Shown here: positions 2,986 through 9,727 of the stretch, piece by piece
How positions within the stretch are numbered: position 1 is the stretch's first letter
Layout: every line of letters starts with the position of its first letter
DNA from: a virus
Taxonomy: Duplodnaviria; Caudoviricetes
Virus record (IMG/VR): IMGVR_UViG_2687453780_000005
Location: 1-64,000 of that record
Reading direction: 5' to 3' (one strand)
Length of the DNA stretch: 64,000 nucleotides
Program-made: the position numbers and the translations under genes
Notes under the pieces: generated by a model
What the model was told of the DNA's origin: nothing
Seen by the model: only the letters and a program-made list of their open reading frames with translations
Database searches by the model: none

Positions 2986-3918
2986 ATGGATATGTTTGAT
3001 GAAAAAGGTATCAAACCTATGCTAATATCAGAAAGAGTTGATCCGTATGACGATGTGGATTCTATCTTTGAGCTTAAATTTGACGGAATCAGATGTATTG
3101 CATATATAGATGATCAATCTACTGATTTAAGGAATAAACGGAATATGATGTTATTGCCAAGATTCCCGGAATTAGAACTATTACATGAGGGCTGCAAACA
3201 GAAATGCATACTTGACGGAGAGTTAATCGTATTAGTCAATGGGAAGCCAGATTTTTACGAAGTCCAAAGAAGGACGGTCTTAACTGATCCCTTTAAGATA
3301 GAACTAGCGTATAAAAAACACCCAGCCGGTTTTGTGGCTTATGATATACTTTACTATAAAGACAAACCCGTAACTGATTTGCCGCTGATGGAGCGCAAAA
3401 AGTTGTTGGACGAAGTAATATCAGAAAGCGATATTTTGTCAAAATCTCGATACATTGAAACTGATGGAATAGCAATGTACAAATTCGCGGAAGATTTCAA
3501 CTTGGAGGGTGTCGTTGGAAAAAAGAAATCAAGCCTATATTGGTTTGGGAAAAAGTCAAAAGAATGGAAGAAAATTAAAGTACTCAAAGAAGAAGATTTT
3601 ATATGCATAGGTTATATGTTCAATAAAAACAGCATGACTACCCTGATACTAGCGAAGTATGATGACAAGAATAAACTAATTATTACGAACCATGTTTCTC
3701 TCGGAGTAAGTATCGCTAAGCTTAAACAACATGGCATGAAAATTTCCGATTGCCCCATAGATAGTTTAACCGGATATGCCGATGCAACATGGATTGAGCC
3801 AATGGTATGTACTATTGAATATATGCCTTCTGAGAAAGAAGGAATACGCCAACCGACATTCAAAAGTGTGCGAGTCGACAAATTGCCTGAAAAATGTAGA
3901 TTACACAATACACATTGA
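2986..3918 (+). CDS. ATP-dependent DNA ligase (minimal LigD/LigB-type)
   Basis: Adenylation motif ELKFDGIR, plus ILDGEL, YDIL and EGVVGK. Confidence 0.9.
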   Translation: MDMFDEKGIKPMLISERVDPYDDVDSIFELKFDGIRCIAYIDDQSTDLRNKRNMMLLPRFPELELLHEGCKQKCILDGELIVLVNGKPDFYEVQRRTVLTDPFKIELAYKKHPAGFVAYDILYYKDKPVTDLPLMERKKLLDEVISESDILSKSRYIETDGIAMYKFAEDFNLEGVVGKKKSSLYWFGKKSKEWKKIKVLKEEDFICIGYMFNKNSMTTLILAKYDDKNKLIITNHVSLGVSIAKLKQHGMKISDCPIDSLTGYADATWIEPMVCTIEYMPSEKEGIRQPTFKSVRVDKLPEKCRLHNTH

Positions 3919-4001: not shown

Positions 4002-4193
4002 ATAAATAGCAATTTAACTAATAAAGCTGATAAAAGCGCTTTGGTTGACAAAAACCAGTTTATGTATGCGTATAATGCCGCTGACTGGAAAGTTTTATTA
4101 GGCTTGGAAAATGGCTGGTTATTTGTGCGGATCGTAAATATTAATACAGGTGTCAACGTCTATAATGGTAAAGTACAACTCACATCATTTTAA
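4002..4193 (+). other. Silent tail fibre C-terminal cassette A (63 codons, no start)
   Basis: Open frame INSNL-TNKADKSALVDKNQFMYAY...KVQLTSF* beginning at the TAAATAGCAATTTA site. Confidence 0.8.
4003..4016 (+). repeat. Shufflon crossover site 1, TAAATAGCAATTTA
   Basis: Identical 14-mer occurs at 4003(+), 4540(-), 6275(+) and 6871(-). Confidence 0.88.
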
Positions 4194-4204
4194 ATGATCA
4201 TTTA
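4191..4204. repeat. Palindromic cassette-junction site TAAATGATCATTTA
   Basis: Lies between convergent cassettes A and B and contains both stop codons. Second copy at 6619. Confidence 0.75.
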
Positions 4205-4554
4205 AGCCTGGTAACAAACAGCCAACCTTCGGCATACAGTGTCGTACCATTAAAGTGCCTTGTCTGCAATACAACATTTTTACTGCTTTCAGATATCTTA
4301 ATTATGCACGAATGTGTAAATGCTTGAAATCCGGCTGCAAGTACTAATGATGCTGATCCGCGACCGTCCAACTCATCTCCAACTTTTAAATATCGGTCAA
4401 CTCGTGATGTTGTGGTCAAAGTTAATCTAATACTGGAGTTGACAATGTAAGTCCCTGGTGGCAACCAAATATTGGTTACTGACGTTATAGAATCTGTTGG
4501 CACGTTTATTGTTCCAGTAGCCATATCATATTCATAACCTAAATTGCTATTTAG
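4198..4554 (-). other. Silent tail fibre C-terminal cassette B
   Basis: ORF 4198..4524 extends in frame to LNSNL-GYEYDMATG at site 2. Confidence 0.82.
4540..4553 (-). repeat. Shufflon crossover site 2
   Basis: Reverse complement of TAAATAGCAATTTA. Confidence 0.88.
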
Positions 4555-4598
4555 TGAATATCAATCAAATGAAATAAAAAATGAAAGGAGGTGTAGCA

Positions 4599-5627
4599 AT
4601 GTGCTCATCCATTACATCCAGTGTTATTGATAGTATAATGATAGAACTATCCGAAAATAACATAATAACAGCCGATAAGCTTTCAGATACTAAAATGATT
4701 TTAGAAATATGCCTTTTAAAATATAATATTTCAGAAATTGAACAAAAAAATGAGATTTCCACTGACGTAGATAGGACACAATTTTATTTACAACAATTTT
4801 TATTAAACATGAAATTACGAGGCTGTACTGCTGGAAGTATTAAGAGTTACAATAATGAATTAAAAAATTTTTTGTTATACATAAATAAACAAATTAATGA
4901 TATCACTTATCATGATATACAAAATTTTTTGGCTTATGGAAAAATACACAAAAAATGGGCAGATAGAACATACAATATAAAATTAATTATAATCCGCTCT
5001 TTCTTTGCGTTTTTGTATGAAGAAGACTATATAAAAACTAATCCTGGGAAAAAACTTCATGAAACCAAGGTTGAACATAAAATTGGAATAATAGTAACCC
5101 CATATCAAAGGGAAGAAATAAAATGTGCTTGCAAAAATGAAAGAGAACAGGCAATGTGCGAAATGCTATATAGCACCGGTGCTAGAATAAGCGAGTTGTG
5201 TGCCTTGAATATACATGATATAAATTTTCATAACATGTCTGCGATTGTATATGGTAAGGGCAGAAAAGAAAGAGAGATATATTTTAACGCACCAACCAAA
5301 TTACATCTTGAAAAATATTTGGATTCAAGGTCAGATAATAATCCGGCTTTATTTGTGATATCTAAAAAACCATATACAAGACTGACTCCATCTTCAGTTA
5401 GAGCTATGCTAAAAAGAATAAAACAAAGAGATGACAATATTGCGAATATTAAATTAACACCACATGTATTCCGAAGAACGGTAGGTACTGATATGATAAA
5501 TAAAGGCGCCCCTTTGGAAATTGTTGCAGAAAAATTAGGCCATATAAAACTAGATACCACAAGACAGTGCTACGCTTCAATTAGCAGAAATACCGTACAT
5601 CAAGCAAACAATAAGTACATTGGATAA
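4599..5627 (+). CDS. Tyrosine recombinase, predicted shufflon invertase
   Basis: TGARISE, PHVFRR, LGH and Tyr (RQCY) catalytic set; SAM-like N-domain; AAGGAGGTG RBS before ATG 4599; sits among the cassettes. Confidence 0.9.
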   Translation: MCSSITSSVIDSIMIELSENNIITADKLSDTKMILEICLLKYNISEIEQKNEISTDVDRTQFYLQQFLLNMKLRGCTAGSIKSYNNELKNFLLYINKQINDITYHDIQNFLAYGKIHKKWADRTYNIKLIIIRSFFAFLYEEDYIKTNPGKKLHETKVEHKIGIIVTPYQREEIKCACKNEREQAMCEMLYSTGARISELCALNIHDINFHNMSAIVYGKGRKEREIYFNAPTKLHLEKYLDSRSDNNPALFVISKKPYTRLTPSSVRAMLKRIKQRDDNIANIKLTPHVFRRTVGTDMINKGAPLEIVAEKLGHIKLDTTRQCYASISRNTVHQANNKYIG

Positions 5628-5671
5628 CAGAGGGAAACAATTAAAAATATCGCCCCCTCTGCTTGTTGTAT

Positions 5672-5791
5672 TTATGGTATTAGAATATTATTCTTTTCAT
5701 TTTCAGTAATCCATTTCTTAGAAACTGCATTTTCGAGTAACGTTTCAGATAATTTACCAGATTTAAATAACCACAATAACATTTCAAACAT
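5672..5791 (-). CDS. XkdX-like small tail fibre-associated protein (39 aa, not in ORF track)
   Basis: MFEMLLWLFKSGKLSETLLENAVSKKWITENEKNNILIP; the AVxKxWITxxE pattern is XkdX-like. Confidence 0.7.
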   Translation of the reverse strand: MFEMLLWLFKSGKLSETLLENAVSKKWITENEKNNILIP

Positions 5792-5792
5792 A

Positions 5793-6200
5793 TCATTTTC
5801 CCTCCAATTCATTTAGTATTAAAGTACCAAGACTTTCTTTCATAGCCGCATTTTCCTTTTCTAAAGCAATAATTCTCTCATTTAAATCGGGTAGTTTAAA
5901 CTCTCCAATTGCGACATCTGTTTTAATTTCTGTTATTCCATCCTCATCTGTTGCTACAACATATTCTTCAATGCTGTTTAACCTCCCAGCATATATTAAA
6001 TCAGATCTTATCCAATCCGTTTTTCCAGAAAGTCCAATTTGAGAAATTTCTCCATTTGCTTTTATAATGGTTTTAATTTCATTAAGAGATAATGTCCCCA
6101 TCTGAAAAGCAATTTTCCCTCCATTGTCGGACAAATCAACTCCTCCTACAACTAAGTCAAATTCAGCATTTCCAAATTTAATTTTTTCAATTTTATTCAT
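5793..6200 (-). CDS. Putative tail fibre assembly protein (XkdW position)
   Basis: 135 aa with a C-terminal coiled coil, directly upstream of the XkdX-like gene. Confidence 0.55.
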   Translation of the reverse strand: MNKIEKIKFGNAEFDLVVGGVDLSDNGGKIAFQMGTLSLNEIKTIIKANGEISQIGLSGKTDWIRSDLIYAGRLNSIEEYVVATDEDGITEIKTDVAIGEFKLPDLNERIIALEKENAAMKESLGTLILNELEGK

Positions 6201-6273
6201 AAATTCATTCCTTTCTTTTTTAAAATAAAAATAAGTCCGTATATGGGACTAGTTTGCGAGCAAGCTTAGTTAT

Positions 6274-6609
6274 CTAAATAGCAATTTAGCTAATAGACTT
6301 ATTTATGTTAGTGGGTTTTCCACTGTACCTGCAGCCAATATTAGGGTTGCGGTTGGTCAGATATCTGTAACTGTACCAGCTAATGCGGAAAACTTCGTGA
6401 TTAATGCTTCATCATTAACCGCAGGTGGATTGACTAACGGCGAAAATATAATTGGAATTAGCTGGTATTCCACGGATCTTACTAGCATCTTTCCAATCGG
6501 ATTTAGGTTGTCTTCGTCTAACCAAGTTGCTGTATATTTAAATAAAACGTCGACTGCTGAATTTACTTTAAATCTAAGGTATGTAACCTATTACTTTAAA
6601 TCTTCTTAG
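6274..6609 (+). other. Silent tail fibre C-terminal cassette C
   Basis: Frame LNSNL-ANRLIYVSGFSTVPAANIRVAVG... is continuous with ORF 6397..6609. Confidence 0.82.
6275..6288 (+). repeat. Shufflon crossover site 3
   Basis: TAAATAGCAATTTA. Confidence 0.88.
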
Positions 6610-6618
6610 TGTATATTT

Positions 6619-6632
6619 TAAATGATCATTTT
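6619..6632. repeat. Second cassette-junction site TAAATGATCATTTT
   Basis: Lies between convergent cassettes C and D. Confidence 0.72.
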
Positions 6633-7449
6633 AACTTGCTATATAAAAAACAGTACCCTCAACGTACGCATTCTTAGCGACTCCATCGCCATTTATTAGC
6701 TCACAGTGTAATCCCCACTTACCACTCTGTGAATGATATGTTTCTGTAGTAATGGCTGTAGTAGCTGATTTCACAGACACTATATGATTTCCAGTATACG
6801 GTAAATCCAGTAAAACATTGCCACTCGCATCTGTAGTGCCTGAATAATTAATTTTTTTAAATAACGAGTTTAAATTGCTATTTAGATCGGTAATGGATTG
6901 TTTAAGATTGTACGCTAATGCTGCACTGGCCGCTTTAGTTGTAATGTTTTCAAACTGGTTTGATATCATCGCCTTCAATAAAGCATTTTCATCTAAATCC
7001 ATGGTTGTTGCAATACTTTTAGAGATTTTTCCTAGTATGATCGACCATGCTTCGTTGGCTATCAAGTTTGCCAGCTTTGTAGCTTGCTGAAAATTAGTAT
7101 CTACATTCATTTTTCCGTCTGAACCAACTTTTGTCCCATCGCCCGATGTAGTAATACCAAATTCAGTTTGAGTGGCCTTCTTTGCACTAATTGTTCCGAT
7201 TTCATTAATTTTAATAGATATATTATCAGGTTTTACTACACCAGGACTATCCTCAGTAGCAACGCCACCACCCTGTGCTGACAATTGATAATAATTTGTA
7301 TTTGTTGGTAATGTTCCAATTGGAGGTAGAGTATGTACAAGATAACTACTCCCATTATAAGATACGACTCTGCCAACCTTATATTGTTTTGTATCAACCC
7401 ATTCTCCATCTGGTATTATTGCTATTGTTCCATAATTTTTTGTTGCCAT
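6631..7449 (-). CDS. Tail fibre/receptor-binding protein with switchable C-terminus (cassette D, 6631-6885, currently fused)
   Basis: Last tail-module gene; WxxxxxYxxGxxVxYNG repeat and ATxxxxGVVK fibre motifs; contains LNSNL encoded by site 4. Confidence 0.82.
   Translation of the reverse strand: MATKNYGTIAIIPDGEWVDTKQYKVGRVVSYNGSSYLVHTLPPIGTLPTNTNYYQLSAQGGGVATEDSPGVVKPDNISIKINEIGTISAKKATQTEFGITTSGDGTKVGSDGKMNVDTNFQQATKLANLIANEAWSIILGKISKSIATTMDLDENALLKAMISNQFENITTKAASAALAYNLKQSITDLNSNLNSLFKKINYSGTTDASGNVLLDLPYTGNHIVSVKSATTAITTETYHSQSGKWGLHCELINGDGVAKNAYVEGTVFYIAS
6871..6884 (-). repeat. Shufflon crossover site 4 (inside the fibre gene)
   Basis: Reverse complement of TAAATAGCAATTTA, in the LNSNL frame. 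Confidence 0.88.
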
Positions 7450-8411
7450 TATATCACTTCCTCCCCATAAAGATCTCCATCATCTATCCAAAAATCCATA
7501 CCTTTGGCTTCGGTTTCGCTCATTAATTCACCAGTTTCGAAATCAATATAAAATAACGGGATAATTAATTTTGATGCAGTGTCTACCTGTTCTTTTAAAT
7601 TCTTTGTTTGGCGATAGTACCATTCAGCGTTATCTTCAGTATCTTCGGGTATGATTCCGCCTTTAGCAAATCGCTGTGCCATATTTGCGTAATTATTCGC
7701 ATCGTTAGCTTTCTGGGTAACATGTATTAATGTGTTATCTGCCGTATCTATTAACTGATTTGCCGTAGAAACCGCTGTGTTTGCTTGTGTAAGTGTATTG
7801 TTTACTTCGACCGTTAGCTGCTGAATGTAAGTTTCTGTTGACTGTATTAAAGCATCAACATTGGATTGCATTTCAGAAAATTGACTTTGATAAGTCGACA
7901 TGTCATTTTGTATCTGAATGATAAGTTGATTAATTTCTTCTTGGCTTGCGTCTAAATCCTCAATTAGATCTGGAATGGTGAGAGCTTGCGATATCAAGTT
8001 TGACAACACATCAAAATCTTCGCTTGCAATTAATCCATCATAGTTAATCAACGATTTCTGAATTAATAAGTTCTGCTGTCTAGTAGAAATAACAGCAGGA
8101 CTTCCAGGTTCTTGGATAACAAATTCGTATTTCACTTTACCTACTTTTGAAAGCATCCTGCTTGTCATAATTAAAATAGGATATCCATTTTCCCATGGCT
8201 CATCAAGCCAGTCATCAACGTATGGGGTTGACTCACCATCGGCCCACATTCGTATTCTAATAGCTTCGTTTCCTTTCAATGAAACCATGTTGCCCTTATC
8301 TGTAATCATTATCCTGTATTTACGAGATAGATTATCGTACTGCTTAACCTTCTCATATACATAACTCATTTCTTGTGATACATCGGCTCTTATAGATTTA
8401 TAAGAAATCAA
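7449..8411 (-). CDS. BppU-like baseplate upper protein
   Basis: N-terminal VKQYDNLSR pattern followed by coiled coil; located in the tail module. Confidence 0.65.
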   Translation of the reverse strand: MISYKSIRADVSQEMSYVYEKVKQYDNLSRKYRIMITDKGNMVSLKGNEAIRIRMWADGESTPYVDDWLDEPWENGYPILIMTSRMLSKVGKVKYEFVIQEPGSPAVISTRQQNLLIQKSLINYDGLIASEDFDVLSNLISQALTIPDLIEDLDASQEEINQLIIQIQNDMSTYQSQFSEMQSNVDALIQSTETYIQQLTVEVNNTLTQANTAVSTANQLIDTADNTLIHVTQKANDANNYANMAQRFAKGGIIPEDTEDNAEWYYRQTKNLKEQVDTASKLIIPLFYIDFETGELMSETEAKGMDFWIDDGDLYGEEVI

Positions 8412-8475: not shown

Positions 8476-8883
8476 TCATTTTATTTTAATTAATTTATCT
8501 AAGGCCAAAAGATATCCTGGCTCCAACATAAACGATGGGTTATTATCAACAAACTTGTCATAATCAAGTAGATATGGATCAATTTCAACCTCTAATTCTC
8601 CAAGTTTTGAAATCGATTCATCATATCTCTCGTGATCTTCATCACTCTTATAATTTGGAAGCACTTTGCCGTCTTCTAAGATCTTGGCATATTTACCTTC
8701 AATATCTTTGTAAAGATATTCTTTCATAAGTTTGTTTTGTTCTGTCTCGTAGTAAGTGCAGTGTTCTTTAATAATTCTTACATTTCTAAATATCCAATAG
8801 CTCATTTCTTGTGGCACTTTAATTCCGGATAGGCCACCAATAGCCCTATCCATATTTACGACTTCGTATAAATGTAATTTCAT
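8476..8883 (-). CDS. Hypothetical phage protein
   Basis: 135 aa, AAGGAG RBS. Confidence 0.7.
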   Translation of the reverse strand: MKLHLYEVVNMDRAIGGLSGIKVPQEMSYWIFRNVRIIKEHCTYYETEQNKLMKEYLYKDIEGKYAKILEDGKVLPNYKSDEDHERYDESISKLGELEVEIDPYLLDYDKFVDNNPSFMLEPGYLLALDKLIKIK

Positions 8884-8906
8884 ATATTCTCCTTATTTTA
8901 GGCAAC

Positions 8907-8938
8907 AAAAAAGAGTAGGAGATTAATCCTACTCTTTT
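8907..8938. terminator. Bidirectional terminator (near-identical copy at 19925)
   Basis: AAAAGAGTAGGA-gattaa-TCCTACTCTTTT. Confidence 0.75.
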
Positions 8939-8944
8939 ATATAA

Positions 8945-9727
8945 TCATCTTATTTTCAGCTTACTATTTATAATTTTGGCACTTGGACAGTATTTTTCAC
9001 ATATTACATTCAGTATTTCTTTGTCGCCATCATTCATTCTGGGGCCAGTCATAATTTCTATGTCGCTAAAGAATTCAGAACCTATCTTTAAGTCAATATG
9101 ATTTATTAATGTATCTACTCCAGCAATCATATTTTGAAGTACAGTGTTGTTTTTTGTTCCAAGTTCTTTTACTCCTCCCGCAAAGTAGTTTAATCTATAT
9201 CTCCACTCGTTTTGAAAACCCCATTCACTTCTTTTATAAGTCCCAACATTATTGGTTGCTATTTTCATATGATAACCGGATCGACTTAATATATTTGGAT
9301 ACAACTTGTCACTATCATCGGTATATTGAACAGGGATTAGAAAATTATCCGTCGGCAATGAAAGTACCATATATTTATTGTTTTCACATAGTTCCTTTGG
9401 TAAATAGTGGTGGGAGCCTCCGTCTTTAGTATTACTTTCCGGACTAAATGTCCAATGATATACCTCGAATGGCAAGGACCTAAGTTTGATGCGTACGCCG
9501 GTCATATTGTAAGTGTACATGTTCCAAAAAGGAATACTTTCGCGAGCATCTGCAGTCCAAGAACTAATAAAAACGTACTTTGCAAAACTTTTAAAATCAG
9601 AAATAATAGATTCATCCATATCATCCATTTTATCTAACGGGTTAAATCTTATTGATCTGTTCTTTAATATTAAACTTAACGAACTTAAATTGGTATAATG
9701 ATATAAGTGTTCTGGAATGATTGACAT
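8945..9727 (-). CDS. DUF2971-like protein (moron, possible defence role)
   Basis: LYHYT, FISSWT, FWNMY and KxxxWxxQNEWR motifs; bounded by hairpins. Confidence 0.7.
   Translation of the reverse strand: MSIIPEHLYHYTNLSSLSLILKNRSIRFNPLDKMDDMDESIISDFKSFAKYVFISSWTADARESIPFWNMYTYNMTGVRIKLRSLPFEVYHWTFSPESNTKDGGSHHYLPKELCENNKYMVLSLPTDNFLIPVQYTDDSDKLYPNILSRSGYHMKIATNNVGTYKRSEWGFQNEWRYRLNYFAGGVKELGTKNNTVLQNMIAGVDTLINHIDLKIGSEFFSDIEIMTGPRMNDGDKEILNVICEKYCPSAKIINSKLKIR

Follow-up and report, generated by a model that had tools for sequence, protein, structure and literature searches.

The window (the whole stretch of 64,000 nt analyzed here, positions 1 to 64,000 of IMG/VR record IMGVR_UViG_2687453780_000005) carried at its left end a prophage with a tail-fiber shufflon, composed of four crossover sites, a tyrosine recombinase gene, and four tip cassettes organized as two tail-to-tail pairs (A/B and C/D); a palindromic element with the center GATC, which is the subject of this report, lay at the junction of each pair. 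Exact copies of the crossover site TAAATAGCAATTTA numbered four in the window, two on the plus strand (S1 at 4003–4016 and S3 at 6275–6288) and two on the minus strand (S2 at 4540–4553 and S4 at 6871–6884), and conservation in the alignment of these four copies was limited to 14–15 bp. The four tips were opened by the reading frame (C)TA AAT AGC AAT TTA from each site and all started with NSNL: (i) S1 was the 5′ boundary of silent cassette A (plus strand, 4005–4193; 62 codons, NSNLTNKAD...QLTSF), which met silent cassette B (minus strand, 4198–4551; 117 codons, NSNLGYEYD...FVTRLK) at junction element P1 (4187–4205); and (ii) silent cassette C (plus strand, 6277–6609; 110 codons) met expressed cassette D (minus strand, 6631–6882, as translated from the site; 83 codons plus stop) at junction element P2 (6615–6632). 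S4 sat within the expressed tail fiber gene (minus strand, 6631–7449; 272 aa), which was composed of a constant N-terminal part of 188 aa plus cassette D.

The shufflon recombinase gene (plus strand, 4581–5627; 348 aa) lay between the two pairs. Two small minus-strand genes that are normally found 3′ of the tail fiber gene sat between it and pair C/D (5672–6200), namely a 46-aa gene (5672–5812; phrog_134) kept in relatives and a 135-aa gene (5793–6200) kept beside the right-hand pair in loci L110 and L283; both are conserved and resemble accessory genes of the tail. An ATP-dependent DNA ligase gene (PF01068, 4.5e-26) was located at 2986–3918 on the plus strand, directly upstream of S1.

The A/B junction displayed TAAATGATCATTTA at 4191, and the C/D junction displayed its one-mismatch copy TAAATGATCATTTT at 6619–6632; these were the only matches to the junction element with up to one mismatch in the 64-kb window. 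The two junctions had 17 identical bases in common (4187–4203 and 6615–6631), while the flanking cassette DNA was unrelated. P1 contained a perfect 16-nt palindrome, TTAAATGATCATTTAA, at 4190–4205, and the core shared by both junctions was the 12-bp dyad AAATGATCATTT. The pattern TAAAT-N4-ATTTA occurred six times in the window (0.81 expected), and five of these six were crossover and junction sites. In the whole 5.9-Mb genome, AAATGATCATTT was found six times, four of them at the junctions of two shufflons, that of the window and a second one (see below). The preliminary description of this DNA, which had placed same-arm GATC palindromes at the tail-to-tail junctions and AGCA sites at the crossovers, was thereby borne out.

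The palindromes coincided with the convergent stop codons, as translated from each crossover site. Cassette A stopped at TAA (4191–4193) and cassette B at TGA (4198–4200), both within P1; cassette C stopped at TAG (6607–6609), nine bases upstream of the dyad, with the dyad TAA at 6619 in its frame; and cassette D stopped at TAA (6631–6633), abutting the palindrome one base outside the dyad. Across relatives (see below), the dyad TAA (7 or 8 nt before the center) or TGA (3 nt before it) was the stop in 28 of 46 tabulated cassette ends, a table that included a few mis-called pairs, and the only cassettes stopping upstream of the dyad were those in the third frame. Each half TAAATGA was thus a two-frame stop, the halves overlapping in TGATCA, and in the extended form TAAATGATCATTTA the half gave a stop in two of the three frames. 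The third frame of the element read L-N-D-H-L, in the same frame and pattern as the crossover motif L-N-S-N-L, which hints that the junction element may derive from a crossover-type site.

The recombinase of the window matched PF00589 (1.6e-30) and SAM-like domains in Pfam, and its catalytic residues R202, H295, R298, and Y331 were invariant in 39 homologues. An AlphaFold2 (AF2) model predicted a two-helix N-terminal hairpin extension and no beta-sheet arm-binding domain; a role of the palindrome as an accessory arm-type site was not supported by this model. Homologues with 50–89% identity were common among metagenome proteins (closest P0002–P0004, 77–89%), a single-protein query gave no match in viral or genome contigs, and alignment-based recombinase scans of genome and metagenome contigs were dominated by generic Xer-like patterns.

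Relatives drawn from whole genomes, IMG/VR, and metagenome contigs fell into three groups: (i) clade I, to which the recombinase of the window belonged, with L110 (71% identical to it, AGCA sites), L129 (64%, AGTG sites), G033 (the same as L021 and L112; 57%, AGTG sites, two pairs 6 kb apart), and L113 (58%, GGCG sites); (ii) clade II, with G135 (the same as L282), L284 (in the window's own genome), L285 to L288, L206, L213, and L218, whose recombinases were ~31% identical to clade I and 67–99% among themselves; and (iii) loci with a third, remote lineage (25–29%) or no recombinase in reach, including L415, L475, L448, L299, and others. Site inventories of clade I thus gave the centers AGCA, AGTG, and GGCG between the same arms. 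Within clade II, L285 used GCTG (5342–5355), and L286 and L287 used AGTG and AGCA in tandem 20–48 nt apart; the recombinases of these three loci were 94–99% identical yet associated with AGCA, AGTG, and GCTG centers. As judged from these site inventories, the recombinase family evidently tolerates different centers between the same arms, which lends support to the earlier premise of constant arms around a free center, and these shufflons would thus already hold several presumably orthogonal crossover classes.

The host genome of the window harbored two further loci of this kind, so that the lysogen carried three loci with compatible sites. The second shufflon, L284 (G000:C2:2601000-2615000), extended over ~5860–8400 of its locus and had a clade II recombinase 31% identical to that of the window, palindromes at C2:2607099 and C2:2609068, nested AGTG and AGCA crossover sites, and two cassette pairs that repeated each other almost exactly in inverted orientation (82 nt and 60 nt at 100%). 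Duplicated cassette pairs flanked the recombinase gene in three clade II loci, in direct orientation in L286 (5929–6566 and 7745–8381) and inverted in L284 and L285 (in the latter 5372–5953 and 7289–7853), and gave no extra tip diversity. The third locus, L283 (G000:C2:1148000-1166000), contained an orphan pair at 8550–9340 with two AGCA sites and the one-mismatch junction element TAAACGATCATTTT, and the 135-aa gene had a homologue beside it. Within this 18-kb locus there was no recombinase, and the orphan pair could therefore be served in trans by the enzyme of the window. The clade II stem was very short, ~45 aa (MSSTNKTSLGLNKWEASDKP..., then KLNSDL; L282 9327–9812 and L286 8369–8503, both minus strand), compared to 188 aa in the window, and the tip family of cassette C occurred on both.

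Conservation of the junction element was assessed at 39 distinct junction regions, taken from convergent pairs whose cassettes were open and which had an AGCA- or AGTG-type site at either end; all junctions were located via the recombinase or the crossover site, never via the palindrome. A 12-mer with up to one mismatch to AAATGATCATTT was contained in 26 of the 39 regions and one with up to two mismatches in 29. The other 15 palindromic centers between the same arms reached counts of 0 to 5 (up to one mismatch), all of them one-step variants of GATC, and no palindromic center but GATC was enriched at the 39 junctions. The symmetrized position matrix from 32 elements read (T/A)AAATGATCATTT(A/T): its ten A/T core positions were conserved at 81–97% (positions 2–4, 6–7, and 9–11 at 95% or more), its G and C at 80%, and its flanks were random, giving a conserved block of 12–14 bp. 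The AAAT and ATTT arms reached at least 95% in both the crossover and the junction matrix, and the variants were mostly single changes of G or C (GATT, GATA, AATC, TATC, and GCTC).

The element was present with clade I (window, L110, L129, and L112), with clade II (G135/L282, L284–L287, and L206), and also with the third lineage (25–29% identity), hence with at least three recombinase lineages that were 25–31% identical, and every system with the element had the same arms in its crossover site. Shufflons that were more distant and differed in the left arm (L032, L034, L022, and L024) displayed no palindrome or degenerate traces only. A pair of AAGT-AGCA type in L490 (4734/5429) had a different perfect 16-nt palindrome, TTAGCTAATTAGCTAA, at its junction (~5080), with stops on both strands. 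The locus L030 of Lachnospiraceae bacterium COE1 also had two AGCA crossover sites, the bases between them (6312–7920) reading as N. A scan of IMG/VR with the exact 14-mer palindrome returned mostly chance matches, 3 of 80 lying between inverted AGCA sites, and an apparent new repeat class (L319, L343, and L350) was dropped, as it lay within a 462-aa reading frame. The junction element was thus shown to be conserved and specific to junctions, and it is far more general than one window; the absence from homologous junctions that would have contradicted the preliminary description was not seen, the element being kept at 26 of 39 junctions found independently of it.

The sequence comparison was also applied to single cassettes in different phages, and two cases of changed partners were identified. 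The first involved L129 and L112, which had 92–95% nucleotide identity over the recombinase, the lysis genes, and the tail fiber stem and shared a cassette, here called X, at 97.8%. X was paired with a 177-aa tip in L112 and with an unrelated 94-aa tip in L129, and the latter tip matched nothing in the whole L112 locus of 17 kb. In the alignment of X, 84 of 85 bases were identical up to ...TAAATGATCATT, and similarity beyond was at chance level, so that the identity stopped at the far edge of the palindrome. X sat at different positions of the two backbones; inversions at crossover sites only move X and cannot change its partner. In the second case, cassette C, paired with D in the window, had homologues paired with three other, mutually unrelated partners: (i) in G135 (80% nucleotide identity), where it was the expressed tip, carried by the different stem of 45 aa and preceded by an AGTG site, with a clade II recombinase alongside; (ii) in L410 (93%); and (iii) in run X2 (~98.5% over 6283–6622), where the match began in the crossover site and ended in the palindrome. 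In X2, a contig-only run, a single contig passed through the palindrome and two left flanks met the crossover site: two contigs with different left flanks ended at the S3-homologous site. No relatives were found for cassettes B and D in IMG/VR, for B and C in the phage record collection, or for C in genome contigs by pattern search.

The two cases show, as read from where homology ends, that the dyad, or the few bases next to it, has repeatedly been a place of recombination and that single tips, not only pairs, are units of exchange. Cassette homology between phages ended in the element, and single tips therefore occurred with different partners; bounded by a crossover site at its 5′ end and by a half-palindrome at its 3′ end, each tip was thus a discrete module. 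An expectation of the preliminary description, that cassettes are re-paired or exchanged singly between phages, was borne out for X and C, with breakpoints in the palindrome. The preliminary interpretation was supported in this part, its core claim, that one enzyme would also bind and recombine the GATC site, being a reasonable supposition.

The GATC palindrome is therefore a conserved 3′ boundary element of tail-fiber tip cassettes, two convergent cassettes overlapping in its 12-bp dyad, AAATGATCATTT. The mechanism held most likely is that shufflon recombinases, binding at the AAAT/ATTT arms, would accept a variety of central tetranucleotides, and that the same recombinases might also exchange strands at the symmetric GATC site. 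Each tip would then be flanked by two sites unable to recombine with each other, one of AGCA/AGTG type and one of GATC type, and such flanking would allow single-tip swapping between co-resident phage genomes, in the manner of engineered recombinase-mediated cassette exchange with heterospecific lox or FRT sites; within one genome, a GATC event would only re-pair silent cassettes. Action of the shufflon recombinase at the palindrome, with the exchange role included, was given a probability of roughly 45%. That the tips are true mobile cassettes with two orthogonal sites of one recombinase family, one asymmetric and coding (TAAAT-AGCA/AGTG-ATTTA) and one symmetric and non-coding (TAAAT-GATC-ATTTA), the enzyme also swapping tips naturally between prophages that share a host and infecting phages, is advanced only tentatively. 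A cassette pool with a shared 5′ and a shared 3′ boundary would be the expected product of site-specific mobilization.

A number of observations weighed against recombinase action at the palindrome. No joints or rearrangements at the palindrome were detected in runs X1 and X2, the only two that contained part of the stretch, which were contig-only and of low depth and would leave rare events invisible; their contigs crossed the palindromes unbranched. The arms were only 4–5 bp long, AT-rich, and partly dictated by the TAA/TTA stops, and arm identity alone was thus weak evidence. All four tips were reachable via the AGCA sites, so that GATC-by-GATC recombination within a genome adds no new expressed tip, and a selective advantage, if there is one, would come from exchange between genomes; moreover, the recombinase gene could be lost by deletion when a symmetric site flanks it. 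The element was also unevenly kept: there was none in L113 of clade I, the expressed pair of G033 had a degenerate trace only, L218, L213, and L283 had one-base or worse variants, and L288 carried AAATGATAATTT and AAATAATCATTT despite a recombinase 99% identical to that of L286. Such decay beside a near-identical recombinase indicates that shufflon inversion does not need the element. AGCA pairs beside other recombinase lineages (31–39% identity) were mostly without it, and among nine two-pair phages the two junction elements of one phage showed no significant trend to stay matched. Finally, record G490 (locus L448), a 41.5-kb provirus rated 100% complete, was without any PF00589 match, and the junction element nevertheless persisted there with one mismatch, alongside two perfect copies of the AGCA 12-mer; this pair was either served in trans or recently acquired.

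Some of these observations suited another account, in which the element is a homology anchor or linker and cassettes are swapped there by general or phage-encoded homologous recombination or by microhomology joining, the shufflon recombinase never acting at it. The breakpoints fell within the shared 12–17 nt, could not be resolved further, and fitted such a linker equally well; its spread over at least three recombinase lineages and its presence in a complete provirus that encodes no tyrosine recombinase, together with the decay in loci with intact recombinases that shows no dependence on the element, pointed the same way. However, RecA-type recombination usually needs more than 12–17 bp to be efficient, the conservation of a dyad with the arms of the crossover site stays unexplained, and the specificity for GATC among 16 possible centers needs a cause; this account was regarded as unlikely, though worth serious consideration. 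Considerably less credit was given to a passive bidirectional stop module, or a relic of the inverted duplication that created the pairs, inherited with them and having no role in recombination. Most cassettes did stop at the TAA or TGA of the element, other AT-rich palindromes overlapping stops were present at junctions (AATTAATT in L032 and TTAGCTAATTAGCTAA in L490), and the G and C positions decayed first (80%), as expected of AT-biased drift, but the cassettes were non-homologous, of unequal length, and re-paired between phages, so that the element was not simply inherited with a pair, and stops need no conserved 12-bp dyad; 26 of the 39 junctions had the same sequence.

The perfect dyad symmetry and the GATC center would also suit a binding site for another dimeric protein of the host or phage, such as a methylation-sensitive GATC regulator or an architectural accessory factor modulating inversion or expression, and the host carried four methyltransferase genes of the D12 class (Dam-type), of which two were adjacent. 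Against this, no candidate DNA-binding gene was conserved in the locus, the recombinase had only the two-helix N-terminal extension and no beta-sheet arm-binding domain, the element was off-center in the loop between crossover sites, and GATC was only mildly depleted in the prophage; this explanation was held to be improbable, slightly more so than the passive module. Avoidance or methylation of GATC was likewise set aside as a lead, a frequency of 0.67 of expectation in the prophage being unremarkable. The adjacent D12-class genes were located at G000:C2:1958368-1960184 of the host and the two further ones elsewhere, with none in the window; restriction-modification systems that are specific for GATC and have two methylases are known to have adjacent genes of this kind. 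A bidirectional intrinsic terminator between convergent cassettes, suggested by the position between convergent reading frames and by the palindromic sequence, was rejected and given a negligible chance: folding energies were −3.3 to 0 kcal/mol (z +0.3 to +0.9 versus shuffles), a terminator scan called no terminator-like site there, and the genes past the junction (6200–5672, minus strand), downstream of the tail fiber gene, need read-through. The palindrome as the insertion point of a module of recombinase plus cassettes was rejected as well, the 135-aa gene lying inside the inter-palindrome segment in the window and outside the pair in L283.

Shufflons are understood as closed cassette sets inverted by one phage or plasmid. 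Every tip here also had a conserved 3′ boundary, and tips re-assorted singly between phages, including systems with ~30% identical recombinases, which suggests that phages of gut Clostridia (Lachnospiraceae phages) draw their host-range modules from an open, shared pool. If the recombinase does act at the palindrome, cassette exchange would create such a pool among co-resident prophages and infecting phages, and heterospecific-site cassette exchange would have its first natural counterpart, one that would also be a compact new tool with 14-bp sites and several orthogonal centers; if it does not, the element would still be a useful marker delimiting tips and offer a clear example of linker conservation where modules meet.

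Among the closest known systems is engineered recombinase-mediated cassette exchange: identical arms with different centers form orthogonal classes, a palindromic center removes directionality, and symmetric spacers give functional, non-directional tyrosine-recombinase sites such as loxPsym, voxsym, and roxsym (PMC8762395). A cassette between two non-cross-reacting sites can there be exchanged between molecules, as is envisaged for the tips. The engineered sites have 13-bp arms, 8-bp spacers, and proven activity, whereas the window had arms of 4–5 conserved bp and a GATC site of putative activity. Integron cassettes resemble the tips in that unrelated cassettes have the same boundary, an imperfectly palindromic tyrosine-recombinase site at each 3′ end. 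Such attC sites are 57–141 bp long and are recognized as folded single strands; in contrast, the element of the window was 12–17 bp with a conserved block of 12–14 bp, had no stable fold, was shared by two convergent cassettes, and overlapped their stops, and it was therefore not of attC type.

The segments of the R64/IncI shufflon carry convergent C-terminal cassettes. The R64 system (recombinase Rci, site sfx) is like the window in having invertible segments between inverted crossover sites and a site inside the coding sequence; sfx combines a 7-bp core with a right arm of 12 bp that is conserved and a left arm that varies, an asymmetry thought to enforce inversion only (PMC11852207), while the crossover core of the window was nearly dyad-symmetric (TAAAT-N4-ATTTA). 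The Rin shufflon of Bifidobacterium prophages likewise has a phage tyrosine invertase beside a receptor-binding or tail-fiber gene, and short repeated sites join the constant N-terminal part of that gene, in frame, to alternative C-terminal cassettes; its rix site is an asymmetric 11-bp sequence, TTCCCTAACCC, with a copy also after the gene (Mavrich et al. 2018, PMC6109161). With TAAATAGCAATTTA as its crossover site, the window did not belong to the Rin family by site, and its tail-to-tail pairs shared a conserved palindrome distinct from the crossover site; the available parts of the two descriptions mention no further conserved element where convergent cassettes meet at their 3′ ends (PMC6109161 and PMC11852207). 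The locus of the window is nonetheless a shufflon by every feature that could be tested, with an R-H-R-Y recombinase, at least three sites in both orientations, one of them in the expressed gene, and in-frame alternative C-terminal cassettes, and it works like Rin and R64.

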